The position numbers and the translations under genes are program-made. The notes under the pieces were generated by a model. The model was not told the origin of the DNA. It searched no databases and saw only the letters and a program-made list of their open reading frames with translations. From sequence record OP744025: a stretch of 64,000 nt of DNA; one strand, written 5' to 3'. Shown here piece by piece: positions 8,094 to 10,292 of the stretch. The DNA is from Escherichia phage A5-4. The stretch's first letter is position 1. Each line of letters opens with the position of its first letter.

Positions 8094-9280
8094 TTGTCAT
8101 GTCCATCGGTGCGACTCTCCCAACTCTATTAATCCCTTCCCCATTTGGATCATCATAACTTATCTCATCTAATCATTAATCTAATCCCCTTTGGAATCTC
8201 TCCCCCACAAATCTAAACTAATCTGATAGCTTACCATAACATAATCCACAAAGAAAGAACTATTTTGCCCACAAAGAAAGGCAGTTTTAAAGAGATACCA
8301 TTGCCAGAGTATGGAGGTGGCGCGACCGTAGGGAGCGACACTATAAAACGAGTATACCCCTCCTACCGCCCTGCGGTCATCGGTGATAACCGATAACATA
8401 CTGTTATCTGTTCTCTTCGTTTCCTCGTTTTATAGTGTCTATATGTAGTAATCTTTTATTCTTTGTCAACAGATTAATTGGCTTATAGACAATTATTTAT
8501 AGTGATTTATTATGCATAGTTATTGATTATGTATGCAATAAGGATACAATAAGGATACAGTAGCGGTAGTGTAGCGACGCTGTAAATATCAACAAAGAGA
8601 GGCCGTATTTGCCCACAGAATGAACAAGTAAGCAGGGCGGTACGCCCTTTTGCTAGGTAAAACTCTCTTCTCTCTTCTTTCCCAAATAAATTTTTTCTTG
8701 CTTTTATTGCCAGAGTATGGCGGGCGCTCAGGCTATTGATGGCCCTGATGGAGTCGCTCCTGCACAGTTGGGATAGTTCATCGTTGGATAGTCACAAGTT
8801 GGTATTATTCTTCCCACTAGTTGGAACAGGCCAGGCCTGGCAAGGCTTAGAGTCGCCTCACTTGTTGGACGGAAGGAGGGCGCTTGCGGTGCGTATAAGT
8901 TGTATTATGTTAAATGCAGATCGAAATTGGTATTCTAAACCAGATTCAGAAGTCAAGGGAAATCTTTAACTTTATTGTTGGAGTAGCACAACATTTTTCT
9001 TGACAAGTCGAATCAAAGATGTATTGTGGATTGAAAATAAATGAAGATAATGCTTGACTTCTTGGATATTTTGAAAACATCGGACCCCCTCCCCCTCCCC
9101 CACGGTTGCCATGCCTGGCAGCAGTGCCAACGCACTAAACAAAAAAGATGCAAACATCCTCCGCTTTCTCCTCTCCGACAAAAGACAACAGACAAGGCTG
9201 GTTAGACTGGTTAGCCTCTTCAGGCCAGTACCCTTTGGATATATTTGGGCAGGATAAATAATAGACCACCCCCGTAAGAG

Positions 9281-9651
9281 GTGACTCAAAATTTTGGCGG
9301 GAGGGTATAAAAACTAAAAAGTGGTCGTTTAAAATTTATGGCAGAGGTCCACTCAGGGTAGACATATACTGGAAATTCTAAACTATGGGGATGGATGTAT
9401 AGGGAAGGGAGGTGACTCAGTGGGAAGTGGTATGTGGTAAGGGATTTATACACACGAGCCTCACTAGGCGAATGTGACTCTGTGGACAATAGGTATTACT
9501 CTGTGGACAATCGGAATAACATGAAGTAGGTCAGTCTCTTCAGAAAGTCTTGACCATTGCGGAAATATATGAAGTAATCCGTCAACCAAAATGGTTTACA
9601 TTGTGGAAAGTAAACCAAAATGGTTTAGATGTGGGTAAACAGATGTGACTC
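9281..9651. repeat. iteron-like direct repeats (GTGACTC x4, tgtggacaat x2) and two palindromes (aaccaaaatggtt)
   Basis: GTGACTC at 9281, 9412, 9474, 9645; tgtggacaat at 9481 and 9502; palindromes at 9585-9597 and 9611-9627. Confidence 0.6.
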
Positions 9652-9899
9652 GACAGGCAAAGTGGTGTGTCTCAGTAGGCCAACAGTGGTTACTCTTTAG
9701 GCAAACTACCTAATTTTGGGATGAATCGATATTTGTGGGAATCGTTGTACGATATTTGGGCATTATTGTATGCAGTGTACAACAGTTTGGAAGGACTATA
9801 TAGTTTGGTGGGCACAACATTTTGGGATGAGCAGATGAGTTTGGTTGCAATCCAGATGCAAAAAGCACCCACTTTTGGGGTGCTCTCTGTAGTTCAGGA

Positions 9900-10292
9900 T
9901 CAGACGGCCAGTCGTCTTAGGACATACGTTGTATTGTCGATGCCTAATATATTAACAAGCTTAACAATCCTGTAGCTCTGGGCTTTTACTGACTTGTATT
10001 GCGATTTATCTTTATCTTCTTGAAGAATGATAGATTCAATTCCATTATTGTAGGCACACTCAAGGTAGCTTTGAGTGAATCCAAGAGCATCTGCATCCTT
10101 CTCAGCTATTTCATAGACAAATTGCGCCTCTGTTCCGTCGTAGATCACCTTCCTTTCTTTCGGTTCTGTATAGGTCCGACGTACAGGACTGGTTTCTTGC
10201 TTTTGTTCTTTACGTTTTTCAGCCTCTTCTGCCAAAGATTTACGTGTACCATTCCAACGATGTGCGATTTTACTTACCATTCGGGCCTCCAA
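9900..10292 (-). CDS. hypothetical protein
   Basis: ORF track; first gene of the minus-strand block. Confidence 0.55.
   Translation of the reverse strand: MEARMVSKIAHRWNGTRKSLAEEAEKRKEQKQETSPVRRTYTEPKERKVIYDGTEAQFVYEIAEKDADALGFTQSYLECAYNNGIESIILQEDKDKSQYKSVKAQSYRIVKLVNILGIDNTTYVLRRLAV

Follow-up and report, generated by a model that had tools for sequence, protein, structure and literature searches.

Genomic context and gene content

The window considered here is a stretch of 64,000 nt from Escherichia phage A5-4, an rV5-like (Vequintavirinae) myophage of E. coli, and all coordinates are window positions. The region in question, 8100-9900, lies between two convergent gene arms and holds a sequence homologous to the direct terminal repeat (DTR) of related phages, within which is found a 28-bp site resembling dif, the chromosomal target of the host recombinases XerC and XerD (XerCD). 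The 2.4-kb neighbourhood matches five Vequintavirinae myophages of E. coli (A7_1, A73, W70, LTH01 and UPEC06) with 84-90% identity; these are referred to below as the sister phages, and together with the window they make up a six-phage alignment. Products of the minus arm include class I and class III ribonucleotide reductases, a DNA ligase and proteins of similar function. The five tRNAs of the window (Met, Tyr, Gly, Gln and Pro) are the set reported for phage Jab, which has a genome of 142.1 kb, is related to Septuagintavirus and UPEC06, and has a reported DTR of 475 bp (PMC13538427). The PCR primers for Jab have no match in the window, whose phage may be identical or closely related to Jab. 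Exact 22-24-mers from the terminal repeat and from a hairpin of the region gave no matches in IMG/VR, and a 24-mer from the repeat gave none in JGI metagenomes and GTDB genomes, so that the comparison has only five public sister phages to draw on.

The plus-strand arm closes with a stop codon at 8067 and the minus-strand arm with one at 9900, both consistent with the list of open reading frames (ORFs) and with the gene borders given in a first-pass annotation of the sequence. That annotation saw no convincing coding frame between them, a view upheld by frame comparison with the five sister phages: each ORF of at least 40 amino acids in 8100-9900 is either frameshifted or stopped in some sister phage, or shows no excess of changes at third codon positions. 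The single ORF that is unbroken in all six phages (8946-9080, minus strand, 44 amino acids) has an altered amino acid in five of its seven variable codons. Judged by these comparisons, the region contains no gene. A packaging or terminus function, one of several options raised in the first-pass annotation, was right in kind, since the region holds, by homology, a direct terminal repeat and its cut sites. The features that define the locus, namely a terminal repeat of 460 bp and, midway along this repeat, a dif-like XerC/XerD site, were missed at that stage. They are as follows.

8651-8658, plus strand: predicted left border of the DTR, TGCTA^GGT, with the predicted cut at 8655/8656, in the aligned column of four reported ends
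8656-9115, unstranded: direct terminal repeat of about 460 bp, by homology to the UPEC06 terminal repeat
8888-8915, plus strand: dif-like XerC/XerD site, composed of GGTGCGTATAA (8888-8898), GTTGTA (8899-8904) and TTATGTTAAAT (8905-8915)
9111-9120, minus strand: predicted right border of the DTR, ...ATGCC^TGGCA, reading TGCCA^GGCAT on the minus strand, with the predicted cut at 9115/9116, aligned with reported ends

The direct terminal repeat and its borders

The UPEC06 record starts inside the region, and its last 462 bases are identical to its first 462; according to its announcement, the termini of this phage were determined with PhageTerm (PMC8928767). The UPEC06 repeat maps to window 8656-9115 with 95% identity, compared with about 90% for the surroundings (2.4 kb). 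Among the sister phages, the sequence is 95-96% identical in four and 89.5% identical in LTH01, and it forms a conserved island amid hypervariable flanks. By homology, 8656-9115 is predicted to be the DTR of A5-4. Only a single copy is seen, since the window runs across a joined junction, either concatemeric or circularised.

Terminal repeats are already known for the Vequintavirinae, and for Jab only as a "DTR of 475 bp". A 459-bp terminal repeat has been described for Gotham (PMC7471380) and is annotated in its record, likewise in an ORF-poor convergent zone, and one of 514 bp was established for KPP-1 from twofold coverage and PhageTerm (PMC9862379). The record of Hena1 has an annotated repeat of 519 bp. 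In all four phages with a reported repeat (UPEC06, Gotham, KPP-1 and Hena1), it lies in an ORF-poor zone between convergent arms, and at least six other Vequintavirus records start or stop exactly at position 1 or 459 of the Gotham repeat. By tblastx, the left arm of the Gotham record is homologous to the plus arm of the window, which shows that the record has the opposite orientation. After co-orientation, the independently reported ends of these four phages, which represent four genera, share alignment columns.

All eight reported borders read TGYYA^RRC in the inward direction, on opposite strands. On the left side, UPEC06 has tttgcta^GACAA, Gotham tatgtca^GACAA, KPP-1 attgcta^AACAC and Hena1 tgtgcta^AACAC; on the right side, the other strand gives, for the phages in this order, gctgcca^GGCAC, gctgcca^GGCGG, ggtgcta^GACGG and tctgtta^GACGG. 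Fixed, sequence-specific borders common to relatives, as expected of T7-type ends, are thus found at the aligned columns of the window. The exact borders in A5-4 may nevertheless be displaced by about 15 bp, given the 475 bp reported for Jab. Searches with nhmmer profiles of the three conserved islands of the region (described below) revealed no convincing homology to the Gotham junction; the best match (E = 0.0017) corresponds to the dif core, its location on the opposite strand being due to the orientation of the Gotham record.

The dif-like XerC/XerD site

The dif site of E. coli consists of GGTGCGCATAA-TGTATA-TTATGTTAAAT (PMC3025954). The arms of the phage site agree with it at 21 of 22 positions (10/11 in the XerC arm, GGTGCGTATAA, and 11/11 in the XerD arm, TTATGTTAAAT) and are spaced by exactly 6 bp, whereas the centre differs. 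A scan for RGTGCGYATAA-N6-TTATGTTAAAT gave a single match in the window and no match in 100 shuffled sequences. A blastn search with the repeat alone returned a 30-nt match in Certrevirus and Henunavirus phages, and one with the core matched 277 phage records, the CTXphi end repeat among them.

The site was found in 15 phages of at least seven genera (the clade of the window, Vequintavirus, Certrevirus, Henunavirus, Mydovirus, Seunavirus and Shandongvirus), in the same ORF-poor zone and, wherever the locus could be oriented, in the same orientation relative to the arms. Its XerD arm is invariant in all 15, the XerC arm reads RGTGCGYATAA in the 14 that have Enterobacterales hosts, and the central region measures exactly 6 bp in every case. 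According to genus, the centre is GTTGTA, TGGGTA, GGTGTA, CGTGTT, CGTGTA or TGTGTA; it is never the TGTATA of the host, and its fourth position is always G. The repeat sequence around the site cannot be aligned between genera. All four reported repeats enclose the site, at distances of 234-288 bp to the left border and 169-213 bp to the right border.

The fifteenth phage, H101 of Pseudoalteromonas (Shandongvirus), carries the XerC arm ACTACCTATAA instead, with the centre TGTGTA. Among 185,579 bacterial and archaeal species, represented by one genome each, ACTACCTATAA-N6 followed by the XerD arm occurs at 14 loci. Eleven of these are in Pseudoalteromonas, two of them on two contigs of one strain, and the other loci include the marine gammaproteobacteria Colwellia and Marinifaba. 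Most of the 14 loci have the centre TTTATA, as opposed to the TGTGTA of H101. The arms of H101 are therefore identical to those of Pseudoalteromonas dif (22/22) and unlike the enterobacterial XerC arm. Since the arms track the dif of the host, as would not be expected of a site for a packaging or replication protein, we take the 28-mer to be a real XerC/XerD target.

Nevertheless, the phage site is a member of the dif family and not a chromosomal dif, as judged from its GTTGTA centre, which differs from TGTATA, and from nearby motifs resembling FtsK-orienting polar sequences (KOPS), which are few and do not converge. Among the IMG/VR contigs of at least 93 kb listed with the pattern, all have a non-host centre. 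The 42 IMG/VR matches with the centre TGTATA are all on other contigs, and those checked for length measure 4-40 kb. In addition, none of 5,426 complete E. coli genomes contains a match to the 460-bp repeat, which argues that the phages are not integrated at dif.

Related sites also occur outside these phages. The E. coli plasmid pO111_1 (204 kb) carries AGTGCGTATAA-GATGGA-TTATGTTAAAT in an unannotated gap at 123365-123392; its arms are of the variant seen in the phage sites, and its centre is again a private one. In IMG/VR, an unrelated large viral contig of 154,976 bp (examined over positions 1-1192) has GGTGCGCATAA-GACATA-TTATGTTAAAT 276 nt from its start, followed by a degenerate second copy, and four DnaA boxes (TGTGGATAA) immediately upstream of the dif-like site. 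The presence of a dif-family site near a genome end may thus extend beyond the rV5-like phages. No paper linking the Vequintavirinae or rV5 with Xer or dif was found in the open-access literature, in which "dif" also matches unrelated words. A possible likeness between the core and the antitoxin repeat of ToxI was considered and rejected.

Other elements inside the repeat

Several further elements accompany the dif-like site within the repeat.

8706-8723, plus strand: 18-mer ATTGCCAGAGTATGGCGG, a second copy of 8300-8317, located 50 nt inside the DTR and invariant in all six phages
8767, 8783, 8798, 8820, 8864 and 8977, plus strand: six same-strand GTTGG motifs spanning 8767-8981, a candidate protein-binding or accessory sequence
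9000-9027, plus strand: putative sigma-70-like promoter match, TTGACA-16-TATTGT, directed rightward (10/12 in a consensus scan)
9065-9077, plus strand: GATATTTTGAAAA box, about 40 bp inside the right border, with a GATATTT core kept across five genera in the alignment
9085-9101, minus strand: C/T tract CCCCCTCCCCCTCCCCC, equal to two overlapping GGGNAGGG (KOPS-like) motifs on the minus strand, directed toward the XerD side

The GTTGG motif occurs six times in 8767-8981, against 0.54 expected (elevenfold), a number reached in none of 5,000 shuffled sequences. None of the 30 columns occupied by the motifs varies, compared with 39 of 205 neighbouring columns (Fisher p = 0.006), and five of the six motifs lie 20-120 bp from the XerC arm. 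The array is clade-specific and was not seen in Gotham. The promoter match is kept in five of the six phages, UPEC06 having one change in the -10 hexamer (TATTGC). The C/T tract, which the first-pass annotation had noted and which is confirmed at its position, has a similar counterpart in CB7 and none in Gotham or pEp01. Of the nine GGGNAGGG motifs in the 64-kb window, four fall in the 1.8-kb region, at 8134, 9087 and 9093 on the minus strand and at 9402 on the plus strand; a KOPS polarity toward the dif-like site was considered and rejected, the motifs being too few and of mixed orientation.

Flanks and hypervariable DNA

Conservation across the alignment, calculated per 50 nt, outlines three islands (8100-8450, approximately 8650-9100 and 9656-9900), separated by hypervariable DNA at 8450-8655 and 9116-9655. 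The features outside the repeat are listed below.

8074-8094, plus strand: terminator-like hairpin at the end of the plus-strand arm, GGGGCC-loop-GGCCC and then a T-rich stretch; the stem is kept in all sister phages and the loop changes
8100-8300, plus strand: C-rich, G-poor untranslated tract with CCACAAA-type motifs, a candidate zone, for read-through from the plus arm, resembling a Rho utilisation (rut) site by its composition, conserved in the sister phages that have it
8244-8317, plus strand: older copy of a duplicated unit (ATCCACAAAG...TTTGCCCACA...ATTGCCAGAGTATGGAGG), comprising repeat families D2 and D7, with exact 15-mers at 8300 and 8706
8337-8439, unstranded: branched hairpin with a 16-bp outer stem, GACACTATAAAACGAG / CTCGTTTTATAGTGTC, around two small hairpins (inverted repeat I1)
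8450-8655, unstranded: hypervariable AT-rich spacer left of the DTR, with unrelated sequence in its place in A73, W70 and LTH01
9116-9655, plus strand: hypervariable zone with degenerate units of about 21 nt, GT[GT]ACTCnGTGG, in 3-6 copies per phage, and with blocks that are present, absent or rearranged
9656-9857, minus strand: conserved island with a G-rich plus strand and seven TTTGG motifs, a candidate rut-like zone for read-through from the minus arm
9860-9883, minus strand: intrinsic terminator of the minus-strand arm, a GCACCC / GGGTGC stem and then a U-run; the stem is invariant in all six phages

Outside the terminal repeat, the branched hairpin is the most conserved element, and 8300-8349 is 100% identical across five phages. 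The hairpin folds with z-scores of -3.6 on the plus strand and -2.6 on the minus strand relative to shuffled sequences. No covariation was found among the predicted pairs in 8296-8446, because these pairs are invariant, although by eye the apical stem of LTH01 preserves pairing despite an A-T to G-C change and an extension. The duplicated unit has its second copy at 8588-8723, where it straddles the left border of the DTR, and a third copy is present in phage A73. In A73 (locus 2420-2540), a 104-nt insertion lies inside the repeat after window position 8722 and partly duplicates the left end of the repeat, including ATTGCCAGAGTATGG. Together with the duplication in the window, this insertion suggests repeated slippage or recombination near the left border. 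On the other side, an HNH endonuclease gene is inserted about 10 bp past the right border in W70 (locus 2940-3422; phrog_99, E = 4e-43), and an HNH gene occupies the equivalent relative place in CB7 (CB7_143, locus 2849-3334). Homing endonucleases seem to have landed repeatedly in the DNA that adjoins the repeat.

The repeats stressed in the first-pass annotation are real, and most of them are located in the hypervariable zone. GTGACTC is present at 9281, 9412, 9474 and 9645, with only two further plus-strand copies in the entire 64 kb; TGTGGACAAT occurs twice (9481 and 9502), as does the palindrome AACCAAAATGGTT (9584 and 9613, 29 nt from start to start). Strict copies of GT[GT]ACTCnGTGG start at 9412, 9474, 9495 and 9689, the last falling in the adjoining part, 9656-9857. 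The 16-nt inverted repeat, at 8337 and 8424, lengthens to 21-nt arms with 90% complementarity. The direct repeat ATTGCCAGAGTATGG does have two copies, but these are at 8300 and 8706 rather than at 8291 and 8708. As key evidence for a function, GTGACTC, TGTGGACAAT and AACCAAAATGGTT fare poorly, being located in the least conserved DNA of the region (9116-9655), and the block with the AACCAAAATGGTT pair is missing from three of the five sister phages. The same annotation described the plus strand as G/T-rich and C-poor, which holds only for 9260-9900 (GC skew +0.29) and is reversed at 8100-8300, where G makes up 9-11% and C 25-31%.

These skews exceed those of the arms beside them. The difference G-C amounts to -36 per 200 nt at 8100-8300, compared with a minimum of -19 in the adjacent arm, and to +36 per 200 nt on the 9260-9900 side, compared with a maximum of +21. 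Transcripts entering from either arm would accordingly change from G-rich (coding) to C-rich and G-poor immediately past the intrinsic terminator, with the most extreme skews of each arm. Gotham has the same compositional pattern in its flanks without sequence homology. In 9656-9899, TTTGG occurs seven times against 0.55 expected. The minus-strand RNA of 9656-9860 would be C-rich and notably unstructured (-28 kcal/mol over 205 nt, z = +0.54), and no fold signal was found in 9656-9860 (z = -0.38 and +0.54). A rut site is expected to be C-rich, G-poor, unstructured, at least about 80 nt long and located past a gene, and both flanks fit in composition and lack of structure. It is plausible that the flanks are candidate Rho loading sites that would act as a backstop, keeping convergent transcription out of the repeat; a transcription termination zone was among the options raised in the first-pass annotation. 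The skew could instead stem from outward transcription out of the repeat.

Neighbouring genes

The last gene of the plus arm (7870-8067, plus strand, 65 amino acids; phrog_14244) is not present in LTH01 and, at the nucleotide level, is 68-76% identical to genes found in jumbo phages of E. coli and Salmonella (121Q, PBECO4 and the SD-series), which looks like exchange among unrelated phage groups. Three neighbouring genes at 12846-16377 on the minus strand encode proteins of 380, 414 and 410 amino acids, each with RCC1-like beta-propeller repeats. A second switch in gene orientation, a divergent junction at approximately 58500-59500, coincides with the minimum of the cumulative GC skew and with the most extreme skew windows. 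Beyond this junction, the tRNA cluster occupies 61.3-63.1 kb, and a sixth, weak tRNA-like match lies at 61271-61349 (Rfam only).

Proposed mechanism

From the place of the repeat, the form of its borders and the arms of the site, we infer what would cut the DNA, how XerCD would act and what the recombination would serve. The terminase would nick opposite strands, 460 bp apart, at the two inverted TGYYA^RRC motifs. The nicks would leave 5' overhangs, and fill-in by a polymerase would produce the full repeat at both ends of each packaged genome. Staggered nicking with fill-in is the classical T7/Watson scheme and, by analogy, the simplest reading of the borders. A site within the terminal repeat is present in two copies, as a direct repeat, in each virion DNA. 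Host XerC and XerD would bind these copies and recombine phage site with phage site. Intramolecular recombination would circularise the injected linear genome and release a linear fragment the size of the repeat, whereas intermolecular recombination, with the right end of one genome meeting the left end of a second, would create a head-to-tail junction. In circular forms, XerCD recombination would resolve multimers.

Complete exchange by the Xer proteins, as tyrosine recombinases, needs matching centres, so that a private centre would permit exchange between phages and disfavour exchange with host dif. The foreign centre would in this way prevent the phage from becoming trapped in, or integrated at, the dif of the host. 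The C-rich, G-poor flanks would be non-coding buffers, in which Rho loading would keep transcription out of the repeat. Among the possible outcomes, cyclisation or end-joining of the incoming DNA is favoured, by analogy with Cre/lox of P1. Taken jointly with the proposed roles of cutting and of XerCD, it is probable that region 8100-9900 is the physical-terminus (concatemer-junction) zone, at which the linear genome begins and ends. That the host dimer resolvase closes or joins the injected linear genome without RecA and without a phage recombinase, in rV5-like phages and at least one marine relative, is put forward more tentatively, as a possibility that stops somewhat short of being probable.

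A number of points weigh against this interpretation. The borders in A5-4 are predicted from homology, and the case for XerCD binding and recombination at the phage site is one of comparative sequence. At dif-type sites XerCD requires FtsK or accessory factors, and no phage-encoded XerCD activator was found. An ORF of 89 amino acids at 6927-7196 (plus strand) is labelled 'DNA translocase FtsK' in the UPEC06 record and is unusually conserved, with 71% amino-acid identity to F10B_0173 of Gotham, the first gene beside the Gotham terminus. As an FtsK gamma domain or Xer activator it was rejected: it has no match in Pfam or among PDB sequences, belongs to a PHROG of unknown function, and its predicted three-helix model has no wing and no fold match. 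KOPS-like motifs are few and inconsistent in orientation, and the use made of Rho above is argued from base composition. Phages with T7-type repeats can replicate without circularising, so that cyclisation may not be needed. With regard to packaging, the UPEC06 library was Nextera-based, a kind which is in general poor for terminus calling (PMC6775973), and earlier work by restriction analysis had assigned circularly permuted, terminally redundant genomes to two members of the subfamily, phiTE and PVP-SE1 (PMC3475682). Nevertheless, phiTE (IMG/VR copy, 142,349 bp) carries a dif-like site with the centre GGTGTA at locus 2878-2905, and its packaging mode may deserve a second look.

Alternative explanations

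A different purpose for the same recombinases would be multimer resolution, as at cer, psi and P1 lox, with the site keeping circular replication intermediates monomeric or trimming multimers that arise by recombination. This is a serious alternative to cyclisation, although on balance an unlikely one. Large E. coli plasmids such as pO111_1 share the arms together with a non-chromosomal centre, and some 230-290 bp of the repeat lie on the XerC side of the site, which is where the accessory sequences of cer and psi are located. In the window this side offers 232 bp of repeat with the conserved GTTGG array, as compared with accessory sequences of about 180 bp at cer and psi; no ARG or ArcA box was recognised there by eye, without a dedicated scan. 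However, the array is confined to one clade, a phage that packages from concatemers gains little by monomerising its DNA, and placement in a terminal repeat, with two direct copies per virion DNA, is not something that multimer resolution requires. If XerCD is not involved at all, the 28-mer would be the site of a phage packaging or replication protein and would merely resemble dif. Its position in mid-repeat beside other conserved boxes, such as GATATTT, is compatible with this, as is the failure to find an activator or recombinase gene nearby. It is nonetheless quite improbable in view of the Xer-type conservation (two fixed arms around a variable centre of exactly 6 bp) and of arms that equal those of host dif and switch to the Pseudoalteromonas type in a Pseudoalteromonas phage. 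The first-pass annotation had offered two other functions, an iteron-based replication origin and a long non-coding RNA, which we regard as improbable. AT-rich patches, many short repeats and an inflection of the cumulative GC skew would suit an origin; the inflection, which that annotation had proposed as a check, is indeed present, but merely follows the change in gene orientation, while the iteron-like repeats are the least conserved sequences and vary in copy number among the phages. Instead of the conserved iterons or clustered DnaA boxes of an origin, the region has a single DnaA-box match. An RNA would be consistent with the conserved branched hairpin, which folds better than shuffled sequences, and with the promoter-like site pointing into the ORF-free right flank. 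Beyond this one invariant hairpin without covariation there is nothing to favour an RNA: Rfam, at gathering and permissive thresholds, gave no RNA family and two chance-level matches (E = 2.7 and E = 6), and the conserved right island has no fold signal.

Two further explanations invoke the dif of the host itself. Filamentous phages integrate via dif-like sites (PMC3025954), and the phage site might be an attachment site for integration at host dif, in a carrier state like that of the integrative mobile elements exploiting Xer (IMEX) CTXphi, VGJphi and TLCphi; the blastn match between the core and the end repeat of CTXphi agrees with such a use. This is very hard to reconcile with the lack of integrated copies, the repeat being found in none of the 5,426 complete E. 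coli genomes, with a centre that is unlike that of the host in every phage and always has G at position 4, and with phage genomes of 130-150 kb. Moreover, phiTE reportedly lacks both a lysogeny module and any integrase remnant (PMC3475682). Alternatively, the site could act as a decoy, with hundreds of phage copies titrating XerCD or FtsK and so blocking dimer resolution and division in the host. The perfect XerD arm in all 15 phages is in keeping with this, and phage copy number is high late in infection. A decoy, however, needs neither a fixed place in mid-repeat nor a strict 6-bp centre, least of all one that avoids the host sequence. In each generation, dimer resolution is required in about one cell in seven, so that the benefit within a lytic cycle would be doubtful, and we give this explanation scarcely any weight.

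Significance

To our knowledge, phage use of host XerCD has so far been described for small integrating filamentous and satellite phages. The terminal repeat of A5-4 is ordinary for its subfamily; what appears to be new, on comparison of the records, is a near-perfect, host-tracking site of the dif family in the middle of the repeat in every genus examined. If the proposed closure or joining of the genome by XerCD is true, the site would be a host-borrowed equivalent of Cre/lox of P1 and the first case of Xer use by virulent tailed phages. Action of XerCD would also explain how linear DNA with a short repeat is converted to a replicating form in widely used therapeutic phages (relatives of rV5, phi92 and PVP-SE1), and would make xerC, xerD and ftsK host factors and, hence, possible routes to resistance. 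It would, in addition, provide a natural example of a private central region that insulates a mobile Xer site from the chromosome. On a practical level, the TGYYA^RRC border and the dif core would allow the true ends to be placed from sequence in Vequintavirinae records with an arbitrary start.

Comparison with known systems

Among the phages of its own subfamily, A5-4, with its predicted repeat of about 460 bp, resembles Gotham, KPP-1 and Hena1 in that the repeat is placed where convergent arms meet, in an ORF-poor zone, and has matching border motifs. It differs from the Vequintavirus repeat in sequence, no homology being found except in the border motifs, the dif-like core and the GATATTT box. 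The concatemer junction of T7 offers a further parallel, since the T7 repeat is flanked by the short-repeat arrays SRL and SRR and short-repeat arrays also adjoin the repeat in the window; T7, however, has no Xer site, and its own RNA polymerase takes part in junction processing.

The site itself shares with chromosomal dif its length of 28 bp, its 11-bp arms and its 6-bp centre, and the arms agree with those of the respective host at 21 of 22 positions here and at 22 of 22 in Gotham, Hena1 and H101. Unlike chromosomal dif, it has a private centre, and it occurs on a virulent phage, twice in each virion DNA molecule, rather than at a replication terminus. The Xer sites of plasmids (cer of ColE1, psi of pSC101, the site of pO111_1 and pdif of Acinetobacter) likewise reside on an extrachromosomal replicon and pair a private centre with arms of the host type, and accessory DNA on the XerC side is possible for the phage site as well. 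The phage site differs from these in lying in the terminal repeat of a linear DNA rather than on a circular plasmid, and no PepA, ArgR or ArcA sites were identified, the ARG and ArcA boxes having been looked for by eye only.

With the IMEX phages CTXphi, VGJphi and TLCphi, A5-4 has in common a dif-like site and the proposed use of host XerCD. Those elements are small, integrating filamentous or satellite phages that recombine with host dif, whereas integrated copies were not found here and the centre argues against such an exchange. The closest functional parallel proposed is loxP/Cre of P1, in which the recombination site also lies in the terminal redundancy and the copies at the two ends could close the genome without homologous recombination. 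P1 is a temperate phage that packages by headful and encodes its own recombinase, while for A5-4 and its relatives the recombinase would be that of the host and the site is set in a short, exact repeat.

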